A stretch of DNA of 32,652 nt from Bacteroidaceae bacterium (GTDB lineage: Bacteria > Bacillota > Clostridia > Lachnospirales > Lachnospiraceae). Of this stretch, positions 8,243 through 32,652 are shown in pieces. How positions within the stretch are numbered: position 1 is the first letter of the stretch; every line of letters starts with the position of its first letter. Made by a program: the position numbers and the translations under genes. A model generated the notes under the pieces. The model was not told the origin of the DNA. It was given only the letters and a program-made list of their open reading frames with translations, and ran no database searches. Location: positions 1 to 32,652 of the forward strand of contig CAVFAM010000344.1 of NCBI GenBank assembly GCA_963620375.1, written 5' to 3'.

Positions 8243-8264
8243 TAATATAGATTGGAGGTACAAT

Positions 8265-8711: not shown

Positions 8712-8750
8712 TTGTGAGATATAGTGGATTCATTTTGTGATCAATTATAC

Positions 8751-8786
8751 AGCCGTAGGGTAGAAATACCTTGCGGCTTATTTTTT
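8751..8786 (+). terminator. Terminator-like hairpin with GAAA loop
   Basis: AGCCGTAGGGTA-GAAA-TACCTTGCGGCT followed by TATTTTTT. Confidence 0.7.
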
Positions 8787-8807
8787 ATTAGAAAGAAGGT
8801 GAGAACA

Positions 8808-10730: not shown

Positions 10731-10780
10731 CAGGAAATTTGCAGAGAGGGCATAGTCCCTCTCTGGGATTGGAGGTAAGA

Positions 10781-11677
10781 ATGGATTTGAAAGATATGAT
10801 ACTGGTAACAGAAAACAACAAGGGGACAGAGACAAATATGCTGATGACCTTGGATGATTATAAGAGTTTTATAGCAATTGATGACATGTCAGAGCTTGCA
10901 GACAATTTGTTGCAGCTTGGAAGGACGCTTGGTAAAGCAGATAACTTCACAGAGTATTACAGGGCAGCAAATGTAACTGTATCTGCGAGATTCTGTCTGG
11001 ATGATATTCAGCTGGGACATTTTCTTCAGGGATTTTATAACGATTCCAAAGAATTTCGGTTTGATAAAGAAGCCAGTTCTTCTGAATGTGTTGCAAAGCT
11101 TAAGGAGATTGGAATGACCGATAAGGGCTGGGGTGATGATTTTAACCTGCATTATGAAAGTGTGGACAGATCATTTGAAAGGGGACAGACGTTTCATAAC
11201 TTCAATGACCATGATTACATGGTGCTTGAAGCATTATCACCAAGAAATCTTGTGGTGATGGATATGAAGTCAGGTTCTCTTACAATTGCCCTTGGTGCGA
11301 CAGAGTATAAGCGTTATCCGAAGGATGAGAAGCCTACAAAGGACAATACCACAATCGGGGTATCGTGGGAGCATGGGATTTATCTTGGTTCCACTCTCTC
11401 AACCACGAATTTCAAGGCATACAAGAGGGAGTATGGAACACCGGAAAAGATAGAGGATATCTATGATTACAGGGCAAAGCTAAAGCAGAAGTTCTATTTT
11501 TATCAGGATATGTCAAAGGATGATGATGTGCCAAAGAAGCTGCAGAATGACTTCCTTCACCAGATGTATGAGGATTTTGGAACGATTGAAGAGGACTGTT
11601 TTTACGACAGGCTGGAAGATGGAAAGTACGATGAGGGCTTTAAGGAAAGACAGGTAAAGGAAGAAAAGAGCCGGTGA
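10781..11677 (+). CDS. Hypothetical ICE protein
   Basis: Long ORF; ATG 10781 after GGAGGT RBS; preceded by hairpin CAGAGAGGG-catagt-CCCTCTCTG (10742-10765). Confidence 0.75.
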   Translation: MDLKDMILVTENNKGTETNMLMTLDDYKSFIAIDDMSELADNLLQLGRTLGKADNFTEYYRAANVTVSARFCLDDIQLGHFLQGFYNDSKEFRFDKEASSSECVAKLKEIGMTDKGWGDDFNLHYESVDRSFERGQTFHNFNDHDYMVLEALSPRNLVVMDMKSGSLTIALGATEYKRYPKDEKPTKDNTTIGVSWEHGIYLGSTLSTTNFKAYKREYGTPEKIEDIYDYRAKLKQKFYFYQDMSKDDDVPKKLQNDFLHQMYEDFGTIEEDCFYDRLEDGKYDEGFKERQVKEEKSR

Positions 11678-11704
11678 TGAGATTTTTACAGGAGGCGATA
11701 TCAT

Positions 11705-11923
11705 ATGGAACAGGAATTTGATGTTGAGATAAAGGAAGTGCTTTCACGAGTACAGAAAGTAAAGGCAGAGTCGCTTGACGATGCCATCAATAAGGCAATG
11801 GATATGTATTATGCAGAGCAGATAGTCCTTGGAGCAGAGGACATGAAGGGAGTTGATTTCTCGCCATTCAGCGAAGGTCAGCTCCCTTCTTCATTAAAAG
11901 AAAACGGAGGAAGAACAAGATGA
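11705..11923 (+). CDS. DpnD/PcfM-like small protein
   Basis: FDVEIKEVLSRVQKVKAESLDDAI...Y...IVLGAEDMKGVDF pattern; RBS AGGAGG. Confidence 0.7.
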   Translation: MEQEFDVEIKEVLSRVQKVKAESLDDAINKAMDMYYAEQIVLGAEDMKGVDFSPFSEGQLPSSLKENGGRTR

Positions 11924-12288
11924 AAAGTGATTCAACAACAGTAATTAAGAACATGGAGTTTTTAGTAAAGGAACTTCATAAGGAGTGGGACAGATCGGGT
12001 GCTTCTAAGGCATCCGTTATTATTTCCCTTGAGGAAGTAGATGGTATCAATGATAAGTTAAAAGAGATTATCTATCAGACACAGAAGTCAGTCGATGAGG
12101 ATGAGCTGACCTTTAAACAGAGCATTGCAAAGTCCAAGGAGTGCTATGTGCTTCTTCGTGTTATGCGTAAGATTGCAAAGAAAAAGGATAAATGTGAAAA
12201 ACAGGCAATCGACAATGAATTTGCAATCGAGCTGGATAAGGAAGAGTTAAAGCTCTTTAAGGGATTGTTTGTAGAGATGTTTAAGTAG
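11920..12288 (+). CDS. Hypothetical ICE protein
   Basis: ATGA overlap with the previous gene; RBS GGAGG. Confidence 0.7.
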
Positions 12289-12302
12289 AGGAGGACAAAG
12301 GT

Positions 12303-15300: not shown

Positions 15301-18300
15301 TGCCGGCACCAATGCAGAGAAGCAAGCTGTATGGGGTGGAGCTTGACAGCATTTCAGGAAGAATCGTAAAGCAGCTTTATCAGAATGCCAATATCAGTAT
15401 TACAGGATTTGAGAATACCACATATCCGGATAACTTCTTTGATGTGGTTGTCGGAAATGTGCCATTTGGTGATTATAAGGTATTTGATCCAAAGTACAAC
15501 AAGTATAACTTCCGTATTCATGATTATTTTCTTGCAAAAGCACTCGATCAGGTTAGACCGGGAGGAATGGTTGCGGTGATTACCACAAAGGGAACACTTG
15601 ATAAGGCAAATCCTACTATCCGAAAGTATTTGGCTGAAAGGGCAGAGCTTGTGGGAGCGATAAGGCTTCCAAATACTGCATTTAAAGATAATGCAGGAAC
15701 TGAAGTGACAGCAGATATCCTGTTTCTGCAGAAAAGGGAGAGAAAGATTGATATTGAGCCGGACTGGGTACACCTTGGTGTGACTGAGAATGGCATTGCT
15801 GTCAATTCATATTTTGCAGAGCATCCGGAAATGATGCTTGGTTCTATGGAGTATGATACAAGGATTTACGGACAGGACAGCAGATATACAGTCTGTGTGA
15901 ATGATGATGAGAACTTCAATATGTATGAAGCATTAAACAAAGCTATCGGTAATATCAAAGCACAGATGACAGATTTTGAGAGAGTGGCAGATGAGGCGGA
16001 GCAGACGGAGGAAGTTATCCCGGCTGATCCGGACGTGAGAAACTACACTTACACATTTTTTGAAGGAAAGCTCTATTACAGGGAAAATTCTGAGATGGTA
16101 AGAAAAGAGGTATCACAGACTGCAGAGGAGAGAATCAGAAGTCTTGACGAAATCAGACAGATAACAAGAGAGCTGATTGATATCCAGATGGATGGCTGCA
16201 GCGAGGAGGAGCTTTCTGATAAGCAGAGACTTCTTAATGTGAAATACGATGCCTTTATAAAGCAGTATGGAGCCATTACTTCAAAAGCAAACAGAATAGC
16301 ATTTCGAGATGACAGCGATTACCCGCTTCTTTGCAGTCTTGAGGAAGTAAATGAAGACGGGGAGGTGAAAAAAGCGGATATGTTTTATAAACAGACGATT
16401 AAGGCAAAGACTGTCATAGACAGAGTGGAGACTGCTGTGGAAGCATTAAATGTATCCGTCAATGAATTTGGATATGTAAACCTTGCCTATATGCTCTCTA
16501 TCTATGAGCCTGATATTACAAATGCAAAGGAAGAGCTTGCAGAAAAGTCCGGGCAGACATCTGATGAGGTAACATTTAGTGATGATGCTTTGGCAGAGCT
16601 TAGAAGGGCAGTTCTTGTGGAAGAGCTGGACGGACTGATTTTCCTTAATCCCGACCGTTACAACGAGAACAATCCTGATATCGGCTGGGAGACAGCAGAC
16701 GAGTATCTTTCCGGCAATGTGAGAGACAAGCTACGTGTAGCAAAGGCTATGGCGGCTGATACCGACAATCTGCAGGAAGAAAGATTTGCAGGAAATGTGG
16801 CAGCACTTGAAAAGGTGCAGCCGGAGTGGATTGAAGCATCAGATATTGATGTAAAGATTGGTACGACATGGATTGAGCCGCTTGATTATGAGCAGTTTAT
16901 CTATGAACTTCTCAATACACCAAGGCGTGCAAGAGCAGTCAGAAGCCAGTATTACAATACAGGCATTCAGGTACACTTAAATAAGATGAGCATGGAATGG
17001 TTCATCGAGAATAAGAGCATGGATAAGCATTCAGTGGCAGCTACTAAGACCTATGGTACAAGCCGCATGGATGCTTATTCTATTTTTGAGGATACGCTGA
17101 ATCTTAAAACTGTAACAGTTAGGGACAGGATTGATGACGGTGATGGCAAATATCATTACGAAGTCAATAAGAATGAGACAATGCTTGCAAGGGAAAAGCA
17201 GAACATGATCAAGGAGAAGTTCAAGGAATGGCTGTTTGCAGAGCCGGAGCGAAGACAGAAGTATGTGGAATATTACAACGAGACATTCAATAATATCCGT
17301 CTGCGTGAGTATGACGGAAGCCACTTACAGTTTCCGGGAATGAATCCGGCGATTGAGCTAAAGCCTCATCAGAAGAATGCAGTGGCAAGAATCCTTTTAG
17401 GGGGAAATACCCTGCTGGCACACTGCGTCGGTGCCGGAAAGTCCTTTGAGATGATGGCAGCCTGCATGGAGCAGAAGAGACTTGGACTTGCCAATAAGAC
17501 GATCATGGTTGTTCCAAAGCCGCTTATCGGGCAGACTGCATCAGAGTTTTTAAGGCTTTATCCGTCAGCAAATATCTTAGTAGCCACGGAGCGTGATTTT
17601 GAAAAAAGCCGCAGAAAGCAGTTTGTATCAAGGATTGCGACAGGTGACTATGACTGTATCATCATGTCGCACTCGCAGTTTGAGAAAATCCCAATCTCAG
17701 CAGAGAGAAAGGAAAGAATGCTCAATGAGCAGATTGATGAGATAAGCTATGCGATTGACGAGATGAAGGAACGTAACGGAGAGCGATGGACTGTAAAGCA
17801 GATGGAAAGCCAGAAGAAAAAGCTGGAGGAACAGCTGAAATCCTTATCTGATGAGAGCAGAAAGGATGACCTTATTACCTTTGAGGAGCTGGGTGTAGAC
17901 TCTATCATGGTAGACGAGGCACATAATTTTAAGAACCTTGCCATATTTTCCAAGATGAATAATGTGTCAGGTATCAGCAGCAGTGGAGCTAAGAAGTCAA
18001 CGGATATGCAGCTTAAATGCCAGTATTTATCAGAGATAAATGATGGCAGAGGCATTGTATTTGCAACAGGTACACCGATATCCAATACCATGTGTGAGAT
18101 GTATGTCATGCAGCTTTACTTACAGAAAGCGGCACTTGAAGAGATGGGAATCCATCACTTTGATTCATGGGCGGCAAACTTTGGTGAAGTGACAACAGCA
18201 CTTGAGCTTACTGTAGAGGGAAGCGGTTTCCGTTTTAAGAGCAGATTCAATAAATTTACAAATCTGCCGGAGCTTATGAATATCTTCCGTGAGGTGGCAG

Positions 18301-19886
18301 ATGTGCAGACAGCCGACATGCTTGACCTTGATGTGCCAGCCCTCAGAGGCGGCAAGCCTATTATTGTGGAGTCGGAGCCTGACTGGTATGTAAAACAGGT
18401 CATGGAAGACTTTGTTGTGAGGGCAGAGCGTATCAGAGGTGGTGGAGTTGATCCAAGCGTGGATAACTTCCTAAAGATTACCCATGAGGCAAGACTACTC
18501 GGAACAGATGCAAGGCTGATTGATAAGGATGCACCAAACAATCCGGATGGAAAGCTCAATAAGGTTGCAGAAAATGTCTGGAAAGAATATGAGAAAGGAA
18601 ATGCTGCTGGTCATATAGGCTGTCAGCTTATTTTTTCTGACATCGGCACACCGGGACCGGATAAGGACTTTACCATTTATGATTATCTGAAGGAAACACT
18701 GATACAGTATGGTATTCCGACAGATGAGATAGCATTTATCCATGATGCCAAGACGGATGCACAGAGGGACGCACTTTTTAAGGAGATGAGGACAGGTAAA
18801 AAGAAGGTTCTTATCGGTTCAACGGACAAGTGTGGAACAGGTGTCAATGTGCAGACACACCTTGTTGCAATGCATCATGTAGACTGCCCTTGGAAGCCAA
18901 GCTCAATAGAACAGCGAGAAGGACGAGGCATCAGGCAGGGCAACGAAAATGAAGAGGTTGCAATCTACAGATATGTCACAAAAGGAACCTTTGATGCATA
19001 CAACTGGTCGCTTGTCGAAAATAAGCAGCGATTCATCAGTCAGGTCATGACAAGCAAGGCAGTAAACCGAAGCTGTGAGGATATCGACGAGGCTACACTT
19101 TCCTATGCAGAGATTAAGGCGGTTGCCACAGGCAATCCTCTTATTCGTGAGAAGATGGAGATTGACAATGATGTCCAGAGATTAAAGCTCTTGAAGGCAT
19201 CCTATGACAATCAGAGATACGGATTGCAGGACAACTTTATGATTAAGTATCCGAAGCTAATCAAGACAGCAACAGAAAAGCTTGCCAATGTCCGTGAGGA
19301 TGTAAAGGCAAGGGATAAAGAGCTGATTGATAATCCGGAATTTGCGATTACAATAGGCAAAGCAACTTACACAGAGCGTGTGGATGGCGGAACGATGATG
19401 CTTGAAGCAATCAGCAAATGTAAGACCGGAGAGACAACTGCAATCGGTAAATTCCACGGATTTGAGCTGCTTGTGGAAAAGAATTTCCTTGGCATCAATT
19501 ATATGGTGCTTCGAGGAAAGACAGAGTACAAGGCAGAGCTTTCCACCAGTCCGGTCGGCAGTATGGTAAAGCTGGAAAACCTGTTCAACGGACTCCATGA
19601 GAACATTGATTTCTTAGAAAAGAAGATTGAGCAGTACCAGAATGACCTTGAAGCATCAAAGGCAGAGTATGACAAGCCATTTGCGTACAGTGAGGAACTG
19701 AATGAAAAACTGGCAAGGCAGTGTGAACTGAATGCCCAGCTTGACATTGAGAATGCAAAGGCTGTGGATGCAGACCTGAGCGGACAGGAGGAAGAAAGAG
19801 AAGCAGATGACAGGATGGAAGCTGCAGCAATTGTAGCAGAGGATAAAGGTGCTTATCCAGCCGACAGAGAGGGCAGAACACGATAG
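12303..19886 (+). CDS. Giant multidomain protein: ArdC-N-like ssDNA-binding domain, N6-adenine methyltransferase and SNF2-type helicase (DarB-like)
   Basis: N-terminal [10 protein letters not shown]...[16 protein letters not shown]; MTase motif [12 protein letters not shown] and motif IV GNVPFG; helicase [18 protein letters not shown] and [11 protein letters not shown]. Confidence 0.9.
13087..13446 (+). CDS. tnpV: TnpV-like protein nested in the +1 frame of the giant helicase gene
   Basis: [13 protein letters not shown]...[23 protein letters not shown]...W...[10 protein letters not shown] matches the TnpV family pattern; own RBS AAAGGAG (13072-13078) 8 nt before ATG 13087. Confidence 0.75.
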
Positions 19887-19899
19887 GAGAGTGAGTAAT

Positions 19900-20517
19900 A
19901 TGAGCATAAGAAAAGTGGTCGCAGGACTACTGATTACAGCAGGGATTGCCATTATGGCAGTCCCTTTTTTCTGGCGGGCAACCGGAGAAAAACAGACAGA
20001 ACAGCTCATAAGTGAATTTGAGCAGACATTGGAGGATGATTACGATGAAGAAACAGATGTGGAGGAAGAGCAAACCTCCATTAGTGAAGAGGATGAAGCC
20101 ATTCTTAAAGAAGGCGGTGTTATCGGTATCATTGAGATACCGGGCTTAGATATCAGGTATCCGGTAATGCAAGGAACCACAAGTAAAGTGCTTAATGCAG
20201 GGATTGGTCATATAGAAGAAACAGCAGGAATCGGTGAGAGTGGCAACTGTGTGTTATGCGGTCACAATGGCAGCAGATACGGCACATTTTTTACACCACT
20301 AAATCAGATATCCATAGGCGATGAAGTGATGATAACCGACAAAAATGGGCTGAAGCATATCTATGAGGTAACAGAGACAGAGGTAGTAAATCCGTATGAT
20401 AACAGCATCAAGACACAGAGTGAAGAAAAAGAATTAACTCTTTTTACCTGTTCCCAGAAAGGAACCATGCGTTTTGTGGTCAGGTGCATTTATAAGGAGG
20501 CGGTGATGGATGAATAA
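19900..20517 (+). CDS. Sortase (class D-like)
   Basis: N-terminal membrane anchor, LCGHN, LTLFTC catalytic motif and downstream Arg; ATG 19900 after AGGAG. Confidence 0.88.
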   Translation: MSIRKVVAGLLITAGIAIMAVPFFWRATGEKQTEQLISEFEQTLEDDYDEETDVEEEQTSISEEDEAILKEGGVIGIIEIPGLDIRYPVMQGTTSKVLNAGIGHIEETAGIGESGNCVLCGHNGSRYGTFFTPLNQISIGDEVMITDKNGLKHIYEVTETEVVNPYDNSIKTQSEEKELTLFTCSQKGTMRFVVRCIYKEAVMDE

Positions 20518-20908
20518 GAGATACCGGTTAAGTGAGATAGAAGAGGCAGTATCAGAAATGGAAGAGCTAATCGACACCGAGGATGATATTGCAGAGATTG
20601 ACGATGACTTTCAGATAGTCGTAAGTGGCTGGTCTGTGTATGTCGAAAGCCTGAATCTGACACTCAGACAGGGAATAGCCTGTGCATGGGATGCGGAGGA
20701 AGGATTATTTATGCCTGATTTTGATGTGACCATCGTGTATGAAGGGAACATTGAAACACAGGAGTGGCTCTACTACGAGCAGGACGGAATGGTCGTTACA
20801 CTTGGCAACTGGTTAAATGGCAGATTGTCTTGTGAACAGATAGAACAGCTTTGGTGTGAGCTTATCATACCGGAGCATAACAAAGAACAAAAAGAAAGCG
20901 AGGAATAG
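20510..20908 (+). CDS. Acidic hypothetical protein
   Basis: 132-aa ORF overlapping the sortase stop; RBS AAGGAGG. Confidence 0.7.
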   Translation: MNKRYRLSEIEEAVSEMEELIDTEDDIAEIDDDFQIVVSGWSVYVESLNLTLRQGIACAWDAEEGLFMPDFDVTIVYEGNIETQEWLYYEQDGMVVTLGNWLNGRLSCEQIEQLWCELIIPEHNKEQKESEE

Positions 20909-20911
20909 CAT

Positions 20912-21601
20912 ATGAAGTATTCAATTAAGGTAAACGAAGTAAGAGCAAAAGAAGGCAGCAATATCAAAGGATTTGCAACAGTGGTATTCGGTGATTCATT
21001 TAAGATCACCAATATAGCAATCCTTGAGAATAAGGACAAGGGAGAGCTTTTTGTATCAATGCCAAGATACCGCTCCAATGAGCGTGATGAAAGCAACGGT
21101 GTGATTTATAAGGATGTGTGCAATCCTATCACAGCAGAGTTTCGTGAGGAACTCTACACCAATATCCTTGATGCCTATGCAAGAATCAAGGAACCGGAGA
21201 AAGAGGAGACACAGAAGCAGGAGCGTACACAGGAAATGCCGGAGTTTTCCGTAACTGTGACACCTTATGAGAGGGAAGGCAGTAACATCAAAGGACTTGC
21301 CCGTATTTACTTTGAAAACAGTTTCATTGTAAATAATATCAATATCGTGCAGGGCAAAGAAAAAATCTTTGTATCAATGCCTTCTTATAAGACAAAGCAG
21401 GTGGATGAGCAGGGTAAGCCAATCTATCAGGATGTCTGCTATCCGGTCACAAAGGATTTCAGGGAAAAACTCTATAATGAGATTATCTCGGAATATGAGA
21501 AAGCAAAGGATAAGAGCAATGAAAAGGCGAGGGAGAGTGCTGAGAGACATCATGGCAATCCCGATAAAGAGAAGGACAAAGAGGCAACACCCTTTCGATA
21601 A
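20912..21601 (+). CDS. Tandem SpoVG-domain protein
   Basis: Two copies of GSNIKG(F/L)A...F..SF....I.I......LFVSMP...Y.DVC.P.T..FRE.LY. Confidence 0.85.
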   Translation: MKYSIKVNEVRAKEGSNIKGFATVVFGDSFKITNIAILENKDKGELFVSMPRYRSNERDESNGVIYKDVCNPITAEFREELYTNILDAYARIKEPEKEETQKQERTQEMPEFSVTVTPYEREGSNIKGLARIYFENSFIVNNINIVQGKEKIFVSMPSYKTKQVDEQGKPIYQDVCYPVTKDFREKLYNEIISEYEKAKDKSNEKARESAERHHGNPDKEKDKEATPFR

Positions 21602-21661
21602 TTAGTAATCAGAGTACAGGGGCGGCCAAGGCTGCCCCATTTACAGAATGGAGGAAACAGA

Positions 21662-22582
21662 ATGGATATGGAAGCAGGAAAAACACTTACCAATGAGGAG
21701 GTTATAAGGGAACTTCTCGAATTACTAAAGAAAAATGCCATGAAAGAGCAGGCAAATAATGTATTTGAGATATGCAGCTATGTGGATGGACTGGAGAAAA
21801 AGATTGATTCCATGACGGAAGAACTCACCAATATGCAGAACCAGATCAAAGAAATGCAGGAGGATACCCTTGTCAATAATGCTAAAAAGGCATTGTCGGA
21901 AGCACAGGAGCGACTTAATGCCAGATGTGAGCAGATAAAGTCACAGGTGTTTGCAGTGAAAGCACAGGTCAAATCTACAGCAAAGAGCATAGTTGATGAA
22001 GCAAAGGCAAAGGGAAGAGCTGCATTATACAGGGTGTCGGAGTTCTTAGGAATTAAGAAAAGACTTCTTGATATCCGGGAAAATGTAAGAGGTGCAATCA
22101 AGACCACGGATAAGGATATAGCAAAGACAGCACTTCTTGCAAAAGGATTTCGTGAAGCAGGGCAGACAGCAGCCAATGCATTCCGCACTTTTGCTGACAA
22201 ATCGGAGGTGGATTATTTACAGAAAGAGCAGAAACATCCAATTACAAAGGCAGTGCTTGCCCCTATGAAAGCAGTGAAAAAGATGCTGGTATCAATGGAG
22301 CTTCATCTGGATGCATCGATTGATAAGCTGGATAATCTGGCTATGAATGTGCAGCTTGATAAGGAAAAGCATATGGAGAATGCGAAAGCACAGGAACAGA
22401 CAGAGCCGGAGAGGGCAGAAGCTGAGCGAGTAGAAGCAGAGGTTGTATATTCACCTATGGTCGCTGAATCACAGGAGTATCAGTATAATGCAGATGCATT
22501 TGAGGCTAGAGACGTGGATGAGGTGAAGCAGGAAGCGGCACATAAGGAAGTATCAAAGGTAAGAGAAGATAAAGCCAGATAG
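21662..22582 (+). CDS. Coiled-coil ICE protein (DUF6674-like)
   Basis: Heptad-rich 306-aa ORF; RBS GGAGG; family call from recalled pattern. Confidence 0.6.
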   Translation: MDMEAGKTLTNEEVIRELLELLKKNAMKEQANNVFEICSYVDGLEKKIDSMTEELTNMQNQIKEMQEDTLVNNAKKALSEAQERLNARCEQIKSQVFAVKAQVKSTAKSIVDEAKAKGRAALYRVSEFLGIKKRLLDIRENVRGAIKTTDKDIAKTALLAKGFREAGQTAANAFRTFADKSEVDYLQKEQKHPITKAVLAPMKAVKKMLVSMELHLDASIDKLDNLAMNVQLDKEKHMENAKAQEQTEPERAEAERVEAEVVYSPMVAESQEYQYNADAFEARDVDEVKQEAAHKEVSKVREDKAR

Positions 22583-22771: not shown

Positions 22772-23773
22772 CTATACAACTATATCAAACTGAAGCATCA
22801 TGCCACCAAAATTGTCAATAAAATAGGCATATTGCTTTGGATGAGTTGCTTTCAGTTTTTGATAACGATTGGATTCTGGAACTTCAAGGTGAACTCCGAA
22901 CCCACAAAACATACAACCATTTCTTGTATAACCCATATTGTATAAATCTGGGATCTTAACATTATATTTTTCAATATATTCATTAATATCATCATCAGTC
23001 CAAAAAGAGAGTGGCTTACATTGGTTGTCTTTAAATTGATAAAAAACATTACAGCCATATTCAAGCCAGGCTTTTTCACGTTGGTAACTTTCGGATGCCA
23101 GGATTCCTAATATAACACATTTCATCCCTAATTCTTTTGCTTTACGGCGAAGTGGCTCCTTTTTTAGCTTGTCGCAACACTTATCAGAAATAGGTAATTC
23201 CATATATTTTTGATATTTCTTGAAGTTGCGCTCTATGTAATCAATAGAGTTTTGCTTGGTACGAGGAGTTTTTGCGTGTTGATATGTTCTGATGGCGTTT
23301 GAAACGCGTTTGGAGAACATAGGATACCCATAGTGTTCCACTACTTTTTTGAAATTCCACATTTCTCCCTTAGAATCTATAGGATAGACAATCATGATAT
23401 TGGTATGATTTTCTTTGATTTCCCATTGGATGTGTTTTAAGGTTTCAGGATATTCGTTAGTGGTATTTGCAAATAAATGTAATATGTTAGGGTATAATTG
23501 TTTAGTAATATGAGATAACACCGTAGAGTCTTTTCCACCCGAATAAGATATGTAGCAGTGATCTTCTCCAAAAGTTCTAACAGCTTGATTAATAAGATAC
23601 TTTGTCTGAATTATTTTGGCTTCAAGAGGCATAGAACGCAATGAAGCTAAAGTGTCACGTCGGTAAGTGAGATATTGAGTACGTTCTTCTCCACATTTCT
23701 TGCAGTATCTGGAATCGCGACTATAACGCATGTTTTCATCGTACTCTTCATCACATTTTTTACAAACAAACAT
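22772..23773 (-). CDS. PAPS/APS-reductase-family (PP-loop) protein with N-terminal Zn-ribbon
   Basis: SYSGGKDS PP-loop, DKCCDKLKKEP and RNGCMFC cysteines, N-terminal CKKC...CKKC. Probable start 23773 after AGGAGG RBS (complement at 23783-23788). Confidence 0.85.
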   Translation of the reverse strand: MFVCKKCDEEYDENMRYSRDSRYCKKCGEERTQYLTYRRDTLASLRSMPLEAKIIQTKYLINQAVRTFGEDHCYISYSGGKDSTVLSHITKQLYPNILHLFANTTNEYPETLKHIQWEIKENHTNIMIVYPIDSKGEMWNFKKVVEHYGYPMFSKRVSNAIRTYQHAKTPRTKQNSIDYIERNFKKYQKYMELPISDKCCDKLKKEPLRRKAKELGMKCVILGILASESYQREKAWLEYGCNVFYQFKDNQCKPLSFWTDDDINEYIEKYNVKIPDLYNMGYTRNGCMFCGFGVHLEVPESNRYQKLKATHPKQYAYFIDNFGGMMLQFDIVV

Positions 23774-23801
23774 TGTTTTAATCCTCCTTTTCTGTTTTTG
23801 A

Positions 23802-23902
23802 ACTAACAAATTTTTTGTATTTTTATTATAATACAAAATAATTGTTAGTCAAGAGCAAAAATACAAAATTTTATTGTAAAAAAAGCATAATTATAGTACA
23901 AT
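23802..23902. promoter_or_regulatory. Divergent promoters with a large operator palindrome
   Basis: 48-bp inverted repeat at 23802-23849 (18/20 arm matches) built from two ACAA-N5-TTGT boxes. Minus-strand promoter TTGACT(23852-23847)-16-TATAAT(23830-23825); plus-strand promoter TTGTAA(23874-23879)-17-TACAAT(23897-23902). Confidence 0.7.
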
Positions 23903-23928
23903 AAAAAATTGGAAAGGTGGGCATTTCT

Positions 23929-24261
23929 ATGGAAATTGGAAGCAGATTATCTGAATTAAGAAAGAAATATGGATACACACAAAAACAATTAGCAGAGGCT
24001 CTCAATTTGTCTCAACAAAGAGTGAGTAACATAGAAAGGAATACCACGGCACCAGATGTGGAATTTTTACATGGTGCAGCTGATTTGTACAAGATTTCTT
24101 TAGATGAACTTATTGGTAGAAGAACACTTATCACTGAGGAAAGCAGCTATGAACAGCAGATATTAAATGTCGTTGAAACTATGGACGACACAAAAAAAGA
24201 GCTGAGTTTGCGTTTGTTAAACGAAGTGGCTCAACAAAGAGGTGATAAAGATGGCGAATAG
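23929..24261 (+). CDS. XRE-family HTH transcriptional regulator
   Basis: RLSELRKKYGYTQKQLAEALNLSQQRVSNIERN..APD...ISLDELIG; start 23929 or 23917. Confidence 0.9.
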   Translation: MEIGSRLSELRKKYGYTQKQLAEALNLSQQRVSNIERNTTAPDVEFLHGAADLYKISLDELIGRRTLITEESSYEQQILNVVETMDDTKKELSLRLLNEVAQQRGDKDGE

Positions 24262-25639
24262 TTATTTTAACGAAAATACGCTTGAGGAGTTAATTGAAGA
24301 AATTAAGTATGTCTACAAGTCCGATGACAGACCATGGGTTATAGGATATAGCGGTGGTAAGGATTCTACAACCGTAGTAGAACTTGTTTATAAGATGTTA
24401 TTGGGATTAGATCCAGATGATAGACATAAAAATGTTTATATTGTATCTTCGGATACTCTAATTGAAAATCCACTTATAAAAATATATTTAAGTAAAATGA
24501 ATGATTTGTTGGGACAGGCAGCAGATAGAGATGGGCTACCAATAAAGTCGGCTATGGTTACACCTCCACCAAACAATTCGTTTTGGGCAAATGTAATTGG
24601 AAGAGGATTCCCTACACCTAGAATGAATGGAACATTCAGATGGTGTACAGATAGATTAAAAATAAATCCTAGTGGTGAATATATTCAAAGAGTTATTGAC
24701 GAGGAAGGAAAAGAAGTAGTTGTTCTTCTTGGAGTCAGAAAAGCAGAAAGTATAGCACGAAAGAGAAGAATTGAAGGCAGAGAACTTGCAAATAGACTTC
24801 TAAATCGACATGAAACCATACAGGATGCATATGTTTATAACCCTATTGTAGAACTTACAACAGATGACGTATGGGATGTTTTACTTAGGTGTGATGGCGG
24901 AAGAACACCTTGGGGATCGGATAATAGCGAGTTGGTATCGCTTTACGCGGATGCAGATAGTGGAGAATGTCCTTTTGCTGGTATTCATGCAGGTGGTCAG
25001 ACACAGAGCTGTGGTAATTCACGTTTTGGGTGCTGGGTATGCACAGTTGTTAAAGAAGATAAGTCGTTAAATGGATTTATAAAGAGTGGACATAGAGAGT
25101 TGATACCGCTTGCTGAATTTAGAAGTTGGCTTATGAGTATACGAGATAATGAAGAATATCGAGAGAAAAAGAGAAGAAATGGAACGGTATATCGTGATAA
25201 GCAAGGTAATATGGGATTCGGTCCATTTAACTGGAAAGCAAGAAAACTTATTCTTCGAAAGTTGTTAGAAACCCAACAGGTTATGGGATATGAACTTATA
25301 ACATTAGATGAACTGAAAGCAATAGATGAAATCTGGGATCAAGAATTAGACTTATCTCGAAGAGTTTTAGTGGAATTATATGAGGAAATAACAGGGAAAA
25401 GACTTCCTTGGTATGACTATAAAGAACCTTTGATTGATAATGAAACTGTTGTTGAATTAGAAAATCTGGCTCAAAAAAATAATGTACCAGAGGAATTGAT
25501 CCGCAATCTGTTATTATCGGTTTATCGAAATAAAAACTATTCAAATCAAAAAATACTTAGAGATGGAATAGATAGGCTATTGAATCAGCAATGGCTACAT
25601 TATGAAATAATAGAGGAGATTGAAAATGAAAATCAATAA
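24251..25639 (+). CDS. dndC: DNA phosphorothioation sulfurtransferase DndC
   Basis: PWVIGYSGGKDST, SDTLIENP, FWANVIGRGFPTP, RWCTDRLKI, GVRKAES, ECP, SCGNSRFGCWVCTVV..DKS and GPF motifs. Confidence 0.93.
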   Translation: MANSYFNENTLEELIEEIKYVYKSDDRPWVIGYSGGKDSTTVVELVYKMLLGLDPDDRHKNVYIVSSDTLIENPLIKIYLSKMNDLLGQAADRDGLPIKSAMVTPPPNNSFWANVIGRGFPTPRMNGTFRWCTDRLKINPSGEYIQRVIDEEGKEVVVLLGVRKAESIARKRRIEGRELANRLLNRHETIQDAYVYNPIVELTTDDVWDVLLRCDGGRTPWGSDNSELVSLYADADSGECPFAGIHAGGQTQSCGNSRFGCWVCTVVKEDKSLNGFIKSGHRELIPLAEFRSWLMSIRDNEEYREKKRRNGTVYRDKQGNMGFGPFNWKARKLILRKLLETQQVMGYELITLDELKAIDEIWDQELDLSRRVLVELYEEITGKRLPWYDYKEPLIDNETVVELENLAQKNNVPEELIRNLLLSVYRNKNYSNQKILRDGIDRLLNQQWLHYEIIEEIENENQ

Positions 25640-27764
25640 AGTAAAATTACATAATTTCAGCTCCTATGAGGGTAATAATGAATTTGATTTCGAGATAACA
25701 GATGCTGGAAAAAACATTGTACTCATTGGTGGAAAAAATGGGGCAGGTAAAACTTCTCTTTTTACGGCAATAAAAGTTGCATTGTATGGACCATTAGCAT
25801 ATGGATATGTAGGTGTAAATAGTCATTATATTTCTAAAATTAAAGACCTAATCAATTCAAAAGCATTTCAACAGGAGGTTGTGGAATCGGAAGTACAGAT
25901 AACGCTACAACTTAAGATTGAGCGTGATATTAGAAATTATGTGATAACAAGGAAATGGGATTATACCAATCAAAGGCTTACAGAGAAATACACAGTAGAA
26001 AGAGATGGCAAGCAATTGAATGACCAGGAATTGTCATACTTTGAGAATTATTTGCGAAGTATTATCCCTCCGGACTTATTTGAATTTTTCCTCTTTGATG
26101 GAGAAGAGGTTGGTAATATTTTCTCTACCAGTGCATACAACACATATGTTAGGAATGCTGTATTCACAATGTGCGGAATGGATGTGTTTGAGATTATCCG
26201 TAAATTTACACAAGGATATGTAACAAGAAACAATTCTATAGATGATGATGACGCATACGACACATATGAGTCTGCAAAACAGCAGATGGAACTATTAGAA
26301 ACAGAGAAGAAAAAACTTGAATCAAAAGTAAACAATTTAACAAAGGAATTAGAAGATATAGAGGTTCAACTTACTGAATTAGAAACTGCATTTAAAAATG
26401 CAGGAGGAATTTCGCGTAAAGAGAAGAAACAGTTAGAAGATGAGTATAATCATGCAGAGAAAGTGAAAACGGAAACACTTACAAATATTAAAATATTTGT
26501 AGAAGGACTAATGCCGTTTTATATATTGAAAGAATTTACTAATCCAATTATGTCACAACTGGATTTTGAAGAAAAAGGTGAGATATTTTATTACGTTCAA
26601 AGCAAGCTGAAGCGAGATTCAATTTCAGAATTATTAAAAGGTGATGTGTCAGATTCGAAGGTGGATCAGTTGATGGATTATTTATTGGACACATTTAGAC
26701 CAAAAGGTTTCCGTGAAGATCTGGAAATGATGTTTGATTTGTCAAAAGAGGACATTGGACGAGTAAATGGCATTGTATCGTCTTTAGATGATTTTGATGT
26801 ATCTGCAATGGTTGATATGGTTAAAAAGAGAAAGGCAGCTTCTGAAAGAACAGCAGAGATTAATAGAATTCTGAAAAACTCAATGAGTGAGGAGGATGTT
26901 AATACATTTGCTCAAAAGGAAAATGAAATTCTTAAGAAAAAGGATGACTTAACAAGTAGATTATATGACTCGCAACACAGATTAGAGGATATTGATAAAG
27001 AATTGCATTCGCAAGAACAGATTAGAGATAAAGCGATGCAAATTCTTAAATCAAATGCCCAGAATAAGCATGTCTATGAGCTGAGCACTGGTATTTCTTC
27101 TATGATGGAACAGTTCCTAGAAGAGAAAACTGTAAGCATAAGAAAGAAACTTGAGAAGACTATTGTACAGAAATTGAAGTCAATTTATAGAAAAAACAAT
27201 TTGATAACACATATCGAAATTGGAAAGAATTTTGATTTTAATTTATATCAGGACGAGGAATACAACGGCAAAGAACTCTTGACGCTGTACAAGAATTTGG
27301 GAAGTTCAGAGTTTACAAATCTTATTGGAACTAAAGGTGAAAAAAGACTGATTAAAATGTTACACGGTACATCTATAAATGTGCTGAAAAATATATCTGA
27401 AGTCGAATTGGGCAAGGAACCAATTCAATTATATAAGAAAATTGAGCTAGGAAGATTGTCAAAAGGAGAACGTCAAATTTTTATCTTGGCATTGTATTGG
27501 GCGATTATCGAGATATCAGGACAGAATATTCCGTTTGTTATTGATACTCCATATGCGAGAATTGATGCAAATCATAGACGTGAAATCTCAGAAAAATTCT
27601 TCCCGAATATTAGTAATCAGGTAATTATTCTGTCTACAGATGAAGAAATAAATGAGGAGTATTATAAGATAGTAAAACCTTATATTTCAAAAGAGTATCT
27701 GTTGATTAACGATGAAAATGAAAACAGAACTACGATTGAGAATAATTACTTTTTTGAGGTGTAG
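25626..27764 (+). CDS. dndD: DNA sulfur modification SMC-like ATPase DndD
   Basis: LIGGKNGAGKTS, ALYG, FFLFDGE, long coiled coil, LSKGERQ, VIDTPYARID..HR, QVIILSTDEEI. Confidence 0.92.
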   Translation: MKINKVKLHNFSSYEGNNEFDFEITDAGKNIVLIGGKNGAGKTSLFTAIKVALYGPLAYGYVGVNSHYISKIKDLINSKAFQQEVVESEVQITLQLKIERDIRNYVITRKWDYTNQRLTEKYTVERDGKQLNDQELSYFENYLRSIIPPDLFEFFLFDGEEVGNIFSTSAYNTYVRNAVFTMCGMDVFEIIRKFTQGYVTRNNSIDDDDAYDTYESAKQQMELLETEKKKLESKVNNLTKELEDIEVQLTELETAFKNAGGISRKEKKQLEDEYNHAEKVKTETLTNIKIFVEGLMPFYILKEFTNPIMSQLDFEEKGEIFYYVQSKLKRDSISELLKGDVSDSKVDQLMDYLLDTFRPKGFREDLEMMFDLSKEDIGRVNGIVSSLDDFDVSAMVDMVKKRKAASERTAEINRILKNSMSEEDVNTFAQKENEILKKKDDLTSRLYDSQHRLEDIDKELHSQEQIRDKAMQILKSNAQNKHVYELSTGISSMMEQFLEEKTVSIRKKLEKTIVQKLKSIYRKNNLITHIEIGKNFDFNLYQDEEYNGKELLTLYKNLGSSEFTNLIGTKGEKRLIKMLHGTSINVLKNISEVELGKEPIQLYKKIELGRLSKGERQIFILALYWAIIEISGQNIPFVIDTPYARIDANHRREISEKFFPNISNQVIILSTDEEINEEYYKIVKPYISKEYLLINDENENRTTIENNYFFEV

Positions 27765-27767
27765 CCA

Positions 27768-28148
27768 ATGATTTTTAGATTAAAAACATCAAAGAGAACA
27801 CAAGAAATCTTTGAGGAACTAGAAAATAGAACAAATTATAAACCATATACCTTGGTTAAGCATGCAATAGCATGGTCTTTGTTAGAAAAAACATCAGTCA
27901 CAGATTATAAGTCAGATTCTGATGGATTAGATTTGAATAGACAGACTATTACAGGTGATAATGATACATATTTCAAGGTGCTTATTGAACAGGTTGAAGG
28001 AAGATGTTTAACAGACGAGGAATATTTTCCACAGTATGTAAAGGCACATATCGACAGAGGTAGTCAACTGTTGCTAGATATGTATAATCATGCTGGAAAT
28101 ATGGATAAATATATTCTTCAGGTTTTAGGAGAGGGGGATACAGTATGA
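27768..28148 (+). CDS. dndE: DNA sulfur modification protein DndE
   Basis: 126 aa; AIAWSL, GLDLNRQTITG and C-terminal AHIDRG patterns; position directly after dndD. Confidence 0.82.
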   Translation: MIFRLKTSKRTQEIFEELENRTNYKPYTLVKHAIAWSLLEKTSVTDYKSDSDGLDLNRQTITGDNDTYFKVLIEQVEGRCLTDEEYFPQYVKAHIDRGSQLLLDMYNHAGNMDKYILQVLGEGDTV

Positions 28149-29338
28149 TTTATTTAGATAATAGTGCAACCTCTCCTATTGATGAGGAAGTTAGAGATGC
28201 GATGCTTCCATATTTGAATGAGGAGTTTGGAAATCCGTCAAGTAAATATTATTGCAAAGCAACTCATGCTAAGAATGCTGTCGAGGAAGCCAGAGAAAAG
28301 GTTGCAAGGTTGCTAGGTGCAAAGCCGGATGAGATTATTTTCACAGCTGGAGCAACAGAAAGTACAAATTTTATTATTAAGGGATATTTAGATTATAGAA
28401 AGTTTTACGGAGATGGCAGGAATCATGTGATTACATCTCTTGTAGAACACAAGGCAACATTAAACACCTGTAAGTATTTGAATGGTGAATTATATTCAAA
28501 CAATGATCCTACTACATCTTTATTTGGTGTAAAGAAAAAAGTAGATAGAGGATATGAAGCTTCATTTGTTGGAGTTACTCCAGATGGTGAGATTAGTGTT
28601 GAAGAAATTACTTCTGCAATTAAAGAAAATACAGCACTTGTATCAATGCTTTATGTGAATAACGAAATAGGGACAATAAGTGATGTTGAGTCAGTGGCAG
28701 AAATCTGTAAGAAGAATAACATTGCACTTCATTCTGATTTAACACAGGCTTTGGGTAAGATAGAAATTGATGTTAAGAGAATGGGAATTGATTATGCTTC
28801 TTGTTCTGCACACAAAATATATGGACCTAAAGGCATAGGCGCTGCATTTATGAAGTCTGATGCTTACGGGATAGTACCTATTACAGCATTTATGCATGGG
28901 GGTGAGCAGGAATTTGGATTCCGTGCAGGAACACATGCAGTTCATAATATTGTAGGTTTTGGCAAAGCAGCTGAAATAGCACTTAGAGATCTTAAGATAA
29001 ATGAAGCATATATAAAAAGTTTGGATGATATGTTGATTGAAGGTATTTCTACTATTGAAGGTGTTCATACAACTGTAGATATATCAAAGCGTTTACCTGG
29101 TATCATTAGTTTGGTAGTGGACAAAACTGATTTTCATAATGAGAGATTCATTAAGAAGATTAGCGAAGATGTGGCTTTGTCGACTGGATCTGCTTGTAGT
29201 GCTGGAGAACCATCTTATGTAATACAGGCACTTGGATTGGCAGATAAGGTTACAAAAGTACTTAGAGTATCTATAAACAAATATACAACAGCAAAAGATA
29301 TAGAAAAATTTGTAGGCATACTTAAAGCTGAAATTTAG
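28145..29338 (+). CDS. dndA: Cysteine desulfurase (DndA/IscS family)
   Basis: IYLDNSATSP, FGNPSS, EHKA, VNNEIG, SAHKIYGPKG (PLP lysine), STGSAC (catalytic Cys); ATGA overlap with dndE. Confidence 0.92.
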   Translation: MIYLDNSATSPIDEEVRDAMLPYLNEEFGNPSSKYYCKATHAKNAVEEAREKVARLLGAKPDEIIFTAGATESTNFIIKGYLDYRKFYGDGRNHVITSLVEHKATLNTCKYLNGELYSNNDPTTSLFGVKKKVDRGYEASFVGVTPDGEISVEEITSAIKENTALVSMLYVNNEIGTISDVESVAEICKKNNIALHSDLTQALGKIEIDVKRMGIDYASCSAHKIYGPKGIGAAFMKSDAYGIVPITAFMHGGEQEFGFRAGTHAVHNIVGFGKAAEIALRDLKINEAYIKSLDDMLIEGISTIEGVHTTVDISKRLPGIISLVVDKTDFHNERFIKKISEDVALSTGSACSAGEPSYVIQALGLADKVTKVLRVSINKYTTAKDIEKFVGILKAEI

Positions 29339-29353
29339 GAGGAATAACACGTT

Positions 29354-32300
29354 ATGGCATTAATGATGGATAACAAGCCAACTGAATATAAAGGTGAAGC
29401 GTTAGTATGGGAAAAACTGTCTTCATTATTGCCTAACGATGTTGTAGTCTACAATCATCGAGAGGTGGTTGATGATCGTGAATTTGATTTCGCATTACTT
29501 ATAAAAAATGTTGGAATTATGGTCATTGAAGTAAAAGGATGGCAGTCTCAGTACATCTTTGATGTGAAAGGTCCTGATGAAATTGTGATTCAAGGAGAAT
29601 CCCAAATTTATGGTTCTCCAGAGAAACAGGCAAGAGGATATAGATTTGATTGGCTGAATTTCTTGAATGACCAGTTTGCAATAAGTCCAGTTGTATTATC
29701 AATGGTATGTTATCCGTTTATATCAGAAAAAGAATATAAGGATGTAAGGTTAGACATTGTATCATCTAGGGATTTTACTATTTTCTCGGATGACCTGAAT
29801 TCAGCAACTAAACTAGGGCAGAAGATATCAAATGCATTTGTCAAGAAAAAGCCATTAAATAGTACTCCGTTTGATGAAAAAGCAATGGCTATAGTAAGAC
29901 AACATTTTGAACCATCATATAAGGCAAAGGATGATCAAATTGTAGAGGTTTCGGATGCATATTCATTACTGAAGGTATTCAACAAAGAATTAACAGAAAA
30001 GGATTCAGATGAACTGATAGAAATGTATTTTGCCGGAACAAAGATTGTTGCATTTGTTAAGAGTGAAATAGATTTGTTATCCGTTTGCGATAAGTTGGAA
30101 GCAGGATTTAATGCCAGAGGTATTATTTCTGATAAAGGAAATGTGAGATTGGCAGAAATAGATGAAAGAAATGATTTTAGTGGTGTATTTGGCTCATTTA
30201 GAATATTTAATTTTGAAATCTATACACATAATTTGGATTTGAATAACGATGAAATTATTGTAGAGGGACAATATACAGAACAACAAAAATTGATACTTGA
30301 AGAAATTGCAAATTCCACAAGTTGGAATTTTGATCAGTATAAGGTTGAACATGCAATGGGTGATAAAAATGTACTCGTTAAAGCAGGTGCGGGAACTGGT
30401 AAAACCTATTCAATGGTATCTCGTATTGCCTATTTGTGCATGAGTAGAAAACGATTTATAAATAATCTTGTAGATGAGATTGCTATGGTGACTTTTACGA
30501 ATGAAGCTGCTGATAATATGAAATTAAGACTAAAGCAGTATTTTATGAATTGTTATATTCTCACCAAAAACAAAAAAGTGCTACATGAAATAGAGGCTGT
30601 AGACTTAATGCAGATTTCGACCATACATAAATTTGCTAAAGCTGTTTTGCAAAGCAACGCTATGGAGTATGGACTGGGTGCGGATTTTGCAATTTCCTCA
30701 AGTGAGTATGCGAAAGAGCAGGTATATGAGAAATATCTTAATGATTTTCTGGTTCAAAAGCAAAAAGAAGATGCGAATTTTGCCCAACAACTAAGAATGC
30801 CTGTTCATAAGTTCAGAAAGTTGTTAATGCATTTTTCACAGCAATTATATAATAAGAGCTATGGGATTAAAGAACTTAAAGCAGAAAATCTGGGGACATT
30901 TGAAGAGTGGCCATTTTTTAATGATGTCATAATGAAGGTTATGATACCAGCAGAAAAAGAATACGAAGAACAGATATTTTCAAAAAATAAAATTGATCTA
31001 AAAGAAAGTATGCTATTACTGAACGATGCAGTAAATGGAGCGTTTAAGGAAAAATGTAGTCTTAAATATAAGTACTTATTTATTGATGAGTTTCAGGATA
31101 CTGATGATGTTCAGATTGATTCTTTCTTAAAGTTACAAAATGTGATTAAAGACACAAAGCTTTTTGTAGTTGGCGATTTAAAGCAGAGTATTTATCGTTT
31201 TAGAGGTGCGACAATTAGTGCGTTTGACCTAATTAGAACAGATAAAGAGAAATGGGAAGAATTTTCACTTACCATAAATTATAGAACTGATAAGAGATTA
31301 TTAGATAAATTTGATGCAGTATTTTCTAAAATGGGTTCAAAAGGATATTTGCCATTTCATAAAGGAAAGGATTCGCTGACCAGTAGTGTTGAGACGTATC
31401 TATCGGAACATGAGTTAGTGACCAAATTAGAGTATGACGGCGATGAGCAGAGGATGGAACAGCTCTTTGCAGAAATCGCAAGGCAGAAAGATATTATAAA
31501 ATATCTATCCAAGCATCATAAATTATCTTCTAAAGATATGATAATTGCCATTTTGGTAAGAGATAATTGGCAAATTCATAATATTTTGGAGGAAGCAAAG
31601 GTTCGAGGTGAGTTTATAGAAACTCAAGTAGGTGGAGATTTATATCAGCTTATGCCTGCTTTAGATTTGTATAAATTGGTAATTGCGCTGCTTAACCCGA
31701 GAGATCCAGTGAATCTTTTTAATTTGATAGATTCAAATTATGTAGGAATTCAGTTAGATATACAAGGATTACATGGTTTAGGTACAGAGGAGCAGGTAAA
31801 AAAGTTAACAGATGTACTTAATCAGTATTTCACAACTGTGATGAACACAACATGGGAAAAGATAATTATGGATACTAAGGTTCAACCAATTTTAATGCTT
31901 CTGAGGAGTATCTATGAAGGATGTCAGCCTTGGTATCAATATTCAGATACCGATAGTGAGCAAAGATTCTATAAAGCAAATTATGAATTGGTATTAGAGA
32001 AAATAATTAAAACATATAGTGTGGATTACTTAACTCTCAATGTGATAGAACACAGTATGCACATAAATATTATGACAAAGCAGGAAGAACTCGCACGAAA
32101 TATTGAGGTAGAGACTGATGATATACGAGTGATTTGTACTACTGTTCATAAAGCAAAAGGATTGGAATATGGATGCGTAATTATGCCATATATGGGTATG
32201 GATATTGCATCAATGAAGAAAGCTGATTTAGATGTGTATGTAGAAAATGAAAAACTTGCATATGGAATTAGAATTGGAGATGAACCAAACAAGAAATATA

Positions 32301-32458
32301 ATTCCAATTATGATGTATCGCAGGAACAAAATGAACGAGTTAACGAAGAAAGTCGAGTATTGTATGTAGCACTAACACGAGCTATCAGAAATGTTGTTTG
32401 GATGAAGGATATTAAATCAAAGAGCAAGATTTCGTGGCAGAATTTAATGGAGGTATAA
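29354..32458 (+). CDS. NERD nuclease-domain / UvrD-Rep (SF1A) helicase fusion
   Basis: N-terminal REFDFALL...IMVIEVKG...SPEKQA (NERD); helicase AGAGTGKT, TFTNEAA, STIHKF, IDEFQD, VGDLKQSIYRFRG, NYRT, TVHKAKGLEY, RVLYVALTRA. Confidence 0.9.
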   Translation: MALMMDNKPTEYKGEALVWEKLSSLLPNDVVVYNHREVVDDREFDFALLIKNVGIMVIEVKGWQSQYIFDVKGPDEIVIQGESQIYGSPEKQARGYRFDWLNFLNDQFAISPVVLSMVCYPFISEKEYKDVRLDIVSSRDFTIFSDDLNSATKLGQKISNAFVKKKPLNSTPFDEKAMAIVRQHFEPSYKAKDDQIVEVSDAYSLLKVFNKELTEKDSDELIEMYFAGTKIVAFVKSEIDLLSVCDKLEAGFNARGIISDKGNVRLAEIDERNDFSGVFGSFRIFNFEIYTHNLDLNNDEIIVEGQYTEQQKLILEEIANSTSWNFDQYKVEHAMGDKNVLVKAGAGTGKTYSMVSRIAYLCMSRKRFINNLVDEIAMVTFTNEAADNMKLRLKQYFMNCYILTKNKKVLHEIEAVDLMQISTIHKFAKAVLQSNAMEYGLGADFAISSSEYAKEQVYEKYLNDFLVQKQKEDANFAQQLRMPVHKFRKLLMHFSQQLYNKSYGIKELKAENLGTFEEWPFFNDVIMKVMIPAEKEYEEQIFSKNKIDLKESMLLLNDAVNGAFKEKCSLKYKYLFIDEFQDTDDVQIDSFLKLQNVIKDTKLFVVGDLKQSIYRFRGATISAFDLIRTDKEKWEEFSLTINYRTDKRLLDKFDAVFSKMGSKGYLPFHKGKDSLTSSVETYLSEHELVTKLEYDGDEQRMEQLFAEIARQKDIIKYLSKHHKLSSKDMIIAILVRDNWQIHNILEEAKVRGEFIETQVGGDLYQLMPALDLYKLVIALLNPRDPVNLFNLIDSNYVGIQLDIQGLHGLGTEEQVKKLTDVLNQYFTTVMNTTWEKIIMDTKVQPILMLLRSIYEGCQPWYQYSDTDSEQRFYKANYELVLEKIIKTYSVDYLTLNVIEHSMHINIMTKQEELARNIEVETDDIRVICTTVHKAKGLEYGCVIMPYMGMDIASMKKADLDVYVENEKLAYGIRIGDEPNKKYNSNYDVSQEQNERVNEESRVLYVALTRAIRNVVWMKDIKSKSKISWQNLMEV

Positions 32459-32459
32459 A

Positions 32460-32600
32460 ATGTCATTATCAATATATACTTACAGCAATCCATATGAAAT
32501 AAATAATGAACCCTATTGGGATTCAATAAGAAACTGTGCTCATTTTTGTGTTTCGCAGACAATGGTAAATGGATTGTCAGCAGTATATGATGAATTGTGA
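32460..32600 (+). pseudogene. Next operon gene, apparently truncated after 46 codons
   Basis: ATG 32460 lies 1 nt after the helicase stop with GGAGGT RBS; MSLSIYTYSNPYEINNEPYWDSIRNCAHFCVSQTMVNGLSAVYDEL*. The stop TGA lies within the putative IS end. Confidence 0.6.
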
Positions 32601-32652
32601 ATAATCTGCGCCAAAATGAGCCACCTGTCCGGTGAGAGTGAGCCACCATTCC
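32596..32652. mobile_element. Probable terminal region of an IS21-family insertion sequence (runs off window)
   Basis: Starts TG(TGAA); abrupt GC rise; tandem TGAGCCACC at 32617-32625 and 32639-32647 (22-bp period), each followed by nnTCC. Confidence 0.65.

Follow-up and report, generated by a model that had tools for sequence, protein, structure and literature searches.

Which effector acts with a DNA phosphorothioation (PT) cassette when none of those described for such cassettes lies beside it? The question is raised by a stretch of 32,652 nucleotides (the window) from a bacterium placed in the Lachnospiraceae (GenBank assembly GCA_963620375.1), which is the complete contig CAVFAM010000344.1 (C344) of an 81%-complete assembly in 477 contigs. 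It harbors dndC, dndD, dndE, and a dndA-like gene, followed by a gene for a NERD-UvrD helicase. The first-pass annotation had proposed that this helicase and the gene downstream of it might form a distinct PT effector. The analysis of related loci agrees with the first part of this proposal, in that an effector of neither the DndFGH nor the Pbe type is coupled to dndCDEA, and departs from the second, the effector being not a pair of genes but a seven-gene block with divergent homologs of DpdE, DpdF, DpdG, DpdH, and DpdI. The locus probably represents a mobile restriction-modification-like system, in which DndA/C/D/E would provide the mark and a seven-protein Dpd/AddAB-like effector would replace both DndFGH and DpdJK.

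The genes xre-dndC-dndD-dndE-dndA-NERD/UvrD are all intact and all located on the forward strand, where they form a single co-oriented run with a final open reading frame (ORF); the intergenic distances from xre to this last ORF are -20, -20, 3, -4, 15, and 1 nt, in agreement with the overlaps or gaps of no more than 15 nt initially described. The run opens with an Xre-family helix-turn-helix regulator (23917..24261; PF01381, E 2e-15), holding the position where other loci have dndB. It is followed by DndC (24242..25639; TIGR03183, 411 bits, above the cut-off of 290), a sulfurtransferase resembling 3'-phosphoadenosine-5'-phosphosulfate (PAPS) reductases, in which the motifs SGGKDS and RFGCWVC are preserved, and by DndD (25620..27764; TIGR03185, 363 bits, above the cut-off of 246), a coiled-coil ABC ATPase preserving Walker A, LSKGE, and IDTP. 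About 60 residues of DndD (roughly 547-606), lying between two aligned stretches, are not matched by the profile. DndE (27768..28148) passes PF08870 (90.7 bits, E 1e-25) and fails TIGR03184 (44.7 versus a cut-off of 71.85), and the cysteine desulfurase (28145..29338), containing the SAHK and GSAC motifs, scores below the TIGR03235 cut-off (365 versus 480 bits); DndA is nevertheless its best-scoring assignment, also in the PADLOC run (E 1e-121). The presence of DndC and DndD, adjacent and above their curated cut-offs, together with DndE and a cysteine desulfurase, identifies a Dnd modification module. The absence of dndB, dndFGH, and pbe genes, previously noted for the window, extends to the whole of its incomplete assembly, where no match to dndB, dndF/G/H, or pbeA was found; the PbeC matches in the assembly and flanks were DndD only, and no ssp gene was found among the proteins of the locus, to which that scan was confined.

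The gene following the desulfurase (29354..32458, forward strand), i.e., the first effector gene, encodes an AddA-like superfamily 1 (SF1) helicase of 1034 aa, with an N-terminal NERD nuclease of the PD-(D/E)XK type at residues 12-110 and UvrD domains at residues 326-1014 (Pfam). Residues E15, D45, E59, and K61 of NERD are kept in 79-80 of 81 homologs, the helicase motifs are invariant, and a sequence search of the PDB with the family profile ranks AddA (3u44_A, E 4e-61) first. An assignment to Gabija was rejected, since the GajB matches cover the helicase core only.

The second effector gene corresponds to the "further gene" of the first-pass annotation, whose ORF is real and comprises only the first 46 codons (32460..32600, forward strand) of a gene broken at position 32597. 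In the relatives this gene encodes an AddB/RecC-like protein of 904 aa (in two pieces in locus L004). The protein has no match in Pfam, NCBIfam, or PADLOC, and its profile has none in the PDB by sequence; its language-model neighbors are AddB-like, and RecC and AddB head the structural matches of its predicted model (pLDDT 66; E 3e-9 to 4e-9, TM about 0.2). The 21 diverse rows of the alignment, down to 15% identity, all share four cysteines in a 1+3 arrangement, which resembles the iron staple of AddB. Between the first and the second cysteine lie 137-191 residues; the nuclease motif (D/E)(Y/F)K(T/S) is absent from this span in 21/21 rows, and no N-terminal Walker A was found. Judged from these sequences and the predicted model, the first two effector genes encode a putative rearranged AddAB, with an inactive-helicase scaffold as partner, and NERD is, by these tests, the sole nuclease domain recognized in the conserved core. 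The likeness to AddAB/RecBC consists of an SF1 helicase standing beside such a scaffold with its four-cysteine 1+3 pattern. Unlike AddAB, where each subunit bears a C-terminal RecB-family nuclease, the helicase of the module stops right after its core and carries its nuclease as the N-terminal NERD, whereas its partner lacks the nuclease motif in a short inter-cysteine span and is encoded in a mobile defense operon. In one locus (L097, 13277-17545), the AddB-like protein carries a C-terminal extension of about 430 residues, for a total length of 1422 aa.

The 46-codon stub is 100% identical to residues 1-46 of the 904-aa protein of the closest relative (L001). In three of four public runs, the contigs part from the window at 32597 and then read on in the intact frame; therefore, the last 55 bases (32598..32652, no strand assigned) are considered foreign, representing either the terminus of an element inserted here or a chimera that arose in the assembly. 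No second copy of them was found in the assembly or in the fetched loci. They may resemble the ends of IS21-family insertion sequences (IS), although sequence searches returned no match confirming this identity. The copy in the window is broken or truncated in the second effector gene, or misassembled there, and the remainder of the operon was not found elsewhere in the same assembly.

The rest of the effector was read from the relatives, not from the window. In all five loci retrieved by the genome scan, the helicase gene is followed by the 904-aa gene and then by a DpdE-like gene, and the extended loci disclose seven genes in the order NERD-UvrD, 904-aa gene, divergent DpdE, DpdF, DpdG, DpdH, and DpdI. 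The profile matches are strong for DpdE (E 5.5e-115), DpdF (E 4e-141), and DpdH (E 2e-80), and lower for DpdG (E 1e-9, in four of the five proteins tried) and DpdI (E 5e-7, in one of three). Using hhalign, the DpdG-like protein was aligned to an annotated DpdG with a probability of 97.7%, and the DpdI-like protein to the product of the gene between dpdH and dpdJ with a probability of 90.3%. DpdE is SNF2-like, DpdF is RecQ-like, and DpdH is a P-loop ATPase, which Bell et al. describe as BrxC-like. A fold search with the DpdG-like model gave a best Z of 6.9, with FokI, N.BspD6I, SspB (6.4), and BrxA (6.0) among the matches; as these values are middling, only a tandem winged helix is taken from it. 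The module shares with canonical Dpd (dpdA-K) the genes dpdE-F-G-H-I in their canonical order, and differs from it in having dndCDEA and the AddAB-like pair in place of DpdA and DpdJ/K/D. The DpdA transglycosylase was found in none of five module genomes, with a model that scored below its cut-off in two control genomes; DpdJ was not found above cut-off in any of 15 module genomes, where it gave two weak 90-residue matches only, in a search having no true-positive control genome. DpdJ, DpdK, and DpdD were not found in the fetched flanks (tblastn with one plasmid query set), DpdK and DpdD being searched genome-wide in G000 only. Membership in canonical Dpd was rejected on these grounds.

The linkage of the seven-gene module with dnd was followed in 17 genomes of the clade carrying the Dpd-derived block. 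A profile of the AddB-like protein matched 12 of 400 family genomes, ten with the Dpd block and two distant; to these ten were added the window, G020, the genomes from the genome scan, and G924, which belongs to a different class (one genome in 400), with G020 and one identical scan locus counted once. The profile searches scored two candidates per genome only. A class-wide profile search returned only two distant matches in 399 genomes, and an order-level search of six genomes returned none. In the metagenome and viral scans, the 81-row helicase alignment picked generic UvrD proteins; the 12 best-scoring of 160 loci (L016-L024 and L096-L098) were analyzed, and the remaining 148 were dropped as generic UvrD/AddA. 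The dnd genes are directly adjacent to the module in 15 of the 17 genomes and are organized in three ways: an upstream xre-dndCDE-A cassette (the window type) in nine genomes, a downstream co-oriented dndBCDEA cassette in three (G788, G778, and G827), and a downstream convergent one in three (G739, G668, and G924), the downstream types carrying dndB instead of xre. In a sixteenth genome (G599), dpdI is on one contig and dndB on another; IS4 and IS66 genes separate them, and the sequence at the junction matches. When only the modules that read through to dpdI are considered, 12 of 13 have adjacent dnd genes, the thirteenth being split by an IS. Some copies are damaged: the first two genes are in pieces in G924, and a transposase lies within dpdE in L004. 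Among the metagenome and viral loci, four carry dnd upstream, and four without upstream dnd are cut before the end of the module.

Module and known effectors occupy the same place without overlapping. A single sample of 330 genomes of the family, each from a different genus, contained five with a DpdH-like protein and 16 with dndC, with an overlap of five (Fisher p 1.4e-7, a value that overstates the association because the five overlaps represent about three lineages and because of the two-candidate scoring). The other 11 dndC loci carry DndH (seven) or PbeA (four) beside dnd, and the module, DndFGH, and PbeA are mutually exclusive beside 16/16 dndC loci. DndH was found in none of 15 module genomes, nor in G924, with a model that matched both of the two DndH control genomes; PbeA was found in none of four module genomes, and neither DndF/G/H nor PbeA was found in the flanks of module loci. 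The canonical dndFGH or pbe genes that might have followed just beyond the window do not do so in the extended loci of its relatives. In comparison with DndABCDE-DndFGH and DndCDEA-PbeABCD, therefore, the modification genes are in common and the module fills the neighboring slot that DndFGH or PbeA holds elsewhere in the family; the differences are that DndH and PbeA were not found in the module genomes tested and that the window lineage has xre, not dndB.

The phylogenies revealed that this association has survived an exchange of its parts. In a 29-row DndC tree, the module-linked sequences form two clades with a deep split between them, and DndC proteins linked to DndFGH or Pbe are interspersed with them; four changes are counted, at least two of them forced, and a single module-linked clade is rejected (approximately unbiased test, p-AU 2e-37). 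The DpdF tree has 17 rows and takes two canonical Dpd proteins, which have long branches, as its outgroup; in it, eight window-type loci nest inside seven dndBCDEA-type loci, and a single dndBCDEA-type clade is rejected (p-AU 8e-7). Since the DndC lineages do not form one clade and the window-type loci are nested in the DpdF tree, the cassette appears to have been exchanged with the link maintained: most likely, the window lineage swapped its dnd cassette for a distant one, which moved upstream, while the effector was kept. A swap with a retained effector makes passive co-location hard to invoke.

On this basis, the following mechanism may be proposed. DndA/C/D/E, given their family membership and intact motifs, would place PT on host DNA; DpdG, DpdH, and DpdI may sense or scan DNA; DpdE and DpdF might be the motors, translocating along or unwinding it; and the AddAB-like pair would unwind unmarked DNA and cut it via NERD, in place of the DpdJ helicase and the DpdK nuclease. 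The proteins might act as a complex that depends on PT and confers anti-phage activity.

Several points weigh against this proposal. The five Dpd matches all lie below the NCBIfam cut-offs. The related genomes are not independent, nine of the 15 adjacent cases belonging to one clade. G467 has the first module genes on a contig that stops within dpdE, and the searches of that genome detected no dndC and no dpdH. Many module loci also contain Mrr, GmrSD, or HNH nucleases, which might be the actual partners of PT. The helicase and AddB-like pair occurs without dpd or adjacent dnd in eight distant loci (L013, L014, L015, L023, G769, G841, G128, and G182), six of which have a short UvrD gene behind the pair, and in the Paenibacillus plasmid NZ_CP043762 the pair is preceded by a dpd cluster of canonical type that includes tgt, dpdJ, and dpdK. 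Finally, Dnd modification is reported to be often decoupled from neighboring effectors (Rakesh et al., PMC10853773). The expectation that helicase homologs would be consistently located beside dndCDE thus holds for the Dpd-linked clade and fails for the distant pairs; these pairs and the Paenibacillus case indicate that the pair is a mobile unit whose link to PT is confined to that clade.

A first alternative is that two independent systems share defense islands, the module being self-sufficient and independent of modification (triggered, e.g., by DNA ends or replication forks) and dnd working alone or with Mrr, GmrSD, or HNH nucleases. The reported decoupling (PMC10853773), the dnd-less pairs, and the location of the loci on mobile elements at lysS or guaA, with other defense genes, would fit it; the adjacency of nearly all complete modules to dnd, a link that outlasted the swap of both DndC lineage and gene order, and the mutual exclusivity at all 16 dndC loci argue against it, and we regard it as rather unlikely. 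Less probable still is a PT-stimulated defense, in which host PT would not be a protective mark and would instead activate or license the effector, with phage DNA or the cell being killed. The linkage data fit this scheme equally well, SspE is described as a PT-sensing NTPase/nuclease (PMC10164549), and the DpdG-like model weakly matches SspB and BrxA; nevertheless, canonical DpdD-K restrict unmodified DNA (PMC5699537, PMC10164549), and those Z values are within the range of common arrangements. That the AddAB-like pair and the Dpd-like helicases are a repair accessory without a defense role, resecting breaks or adenylated nicks left by PT synthesis, is very improbable: AddA-like and AddB/RecC-like folds are indeed DNA-end-processing machines, and DpdF is RecQ-like, but the module is absent from 11/16 dndC loci of the sample, five of its seven genes derive from a restriction module, and it sits in the effector slot. 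Processing of the adenylated intermediate, the second idea of the first-pass annotation, gained no support from the results obtained.

As for the systems already described, DpdD-K form the restriction half of Dpd (PMC10164549), and nucleases in the vicinity of dnd, NERD among them, have been reported, as have Dpd hybrids (PMC10853773, PMC12839542, PMC5699537, PMC10164549, PMC12914056, bioRxiv 10.1101/2025.09.15.676423). BRIGADE and the BREX-related capture (BRC) hybrids likewise reuse DpdG/DpdHI or tRNA-guanine transglycosylase (TGT) parts (bioRxiv 10.1101/2025.09.15.676423, PMC12839542); in the sections of these accounts consulted, they keep 7-deazaguanine or TGT genes, YprA helicases, or PglZ, and contain no DpdE-I joined to dndCDE or to an AddAB-like pair. 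Within the portions of the literature covered, no published account of a dnd cassette combined with either DpdE-I or an AddAB-like pair was found, and no catalogued PT subtype matched the architecture; the large dnd-neighborhood dataset of Rakesh et al. may list such loci. The locus is a real and apparently uncatalogued combination of known parts, a probable variant of PT-based defense with a Dpd-derived effector and a rearranged AddAB.

Other features of these loci can be mentioned. GmrSD- and Mrr-family nucleases are a recurrent insertion, either among dndE, dndA, and the helicase gene or immediately behind dnd (L001 6841-8790; L005 9165-9983; L206 6343-10319; L222 6592-9406), and in G743 (L203 7511-8830) a DGQHR/DndB-like gene follows dpdI, although the dnd cassette has xre and no dndB. 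The Paenibacillus plasmid (L226 1-36377) carries tgt, two dpdJ, dpdK, and dpdE-I, then AddB-like and UvrD genes, and might be a canonical Dpd-hybrid intermediate. A distinct cassette of three to four genes (UvrD, AddB-like, an optional gene of 61-74 aa, and a short UvrD), without dnd or dpd, is present on Bacillus/Geobacillus plasmids and in Clostridia (L014 5158-12527; L015 16940-24294; L013 15981-22954; L220/L223; L180; L023) and is a candidate defense system of its own. An LRR_5-TelA-rhomboid trio lies after dpdI in G020 and G459, and after the distant UvrD-AddB-UvrD cassette in G769 (L008 2730-6165; L182 13446-16892; L223 2358-5476).

The position 22772, formerly given as the start of the locus, does bound a real gene, which is divergent and lies outside the co-oriented run. 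This accessory gene (22772..23836, reverse strand) encodes a phage-type protein of the PAPS-reductase family (PF01507, E 1e-22), with the motifs SGGKDS, CCDKLK, and GCMFC and an N-terminal CxxC...CxxC pair resembling a zinc finger; its best annotated relatives are phage PAPS reductases (30-39% identity). It adjoins xre in the window-type loci, is split or short in some relatives, and could encode a second sulfur- or nucleotide-modifying enzyme.

The assignment of the locus to an integrative and conjugative element is borne out by the backbone that carries it (3160..22582, forward strand), which encodes TrbC-like, PrgI, TraG/VirB4 ATPase, and NlpC/P60 proteins (Pfam), as well as a 2527-aa methylase-helicase, a sortase, and a SpoVG-like protein; the GC content is 0.336 in the locus versus 0.428 in the backbone. 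In G020, the same element also has VirD4, a relaxase, and an integrase and extends over about 79 kb, its limits marked by a 16-bp direct repeat at the 3' end of lysS (L012 4969-4984, L009 5989-6004); the module of G668 sits just downstream of lysS, and that of G778 near guaA. Within the element, the genes at positions 528-2882 of the window, which encode an ABC-2 transporter pair together with a MerR/GyrI-like regulator, may be a cargo for the efflux of a drug or bacteriocin.

A bolder reading of the restriction-modification-like system, to which we assign slightly less than even chances, is that DpdE-I are a modification-agnostic reader of self and non-self whose target has changed from a mark on the base (7-deazaguanine) to one on the backbone (PT), with a re-engineered AddAB, having NERD at the helicase N-terminus and a nuclease-less iron-staple partner, as the cutter. 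PT effectors would then comprise one more class in addition to DndFGH, PbeABCD, and SspE/FGH, a class that accepts DndC of different lineages and hence probably a variety of PT motifs. What each of the Dpd restriction proteins does is stated to be unknown (PMC10164549), and how PT systems discriminate self from non-self at partial modification is described as poorly understood (PMC12914056). By retaining DpdE-I while swapping both the mark (DpdABC for DndCDEA) and the cutter (DpdJK for the AddAB-like pair), a natural hybrid would separate the sensor from the executor, and would make it testable whether DpdE-I themselves read the mark. Moreover, because all the Dpd matches fall under the curated cut-offs and the AddB-like gene has no family match, such a hybrid would explain why some dnd loci of gut bacteria appear effector-less to annotation tools.

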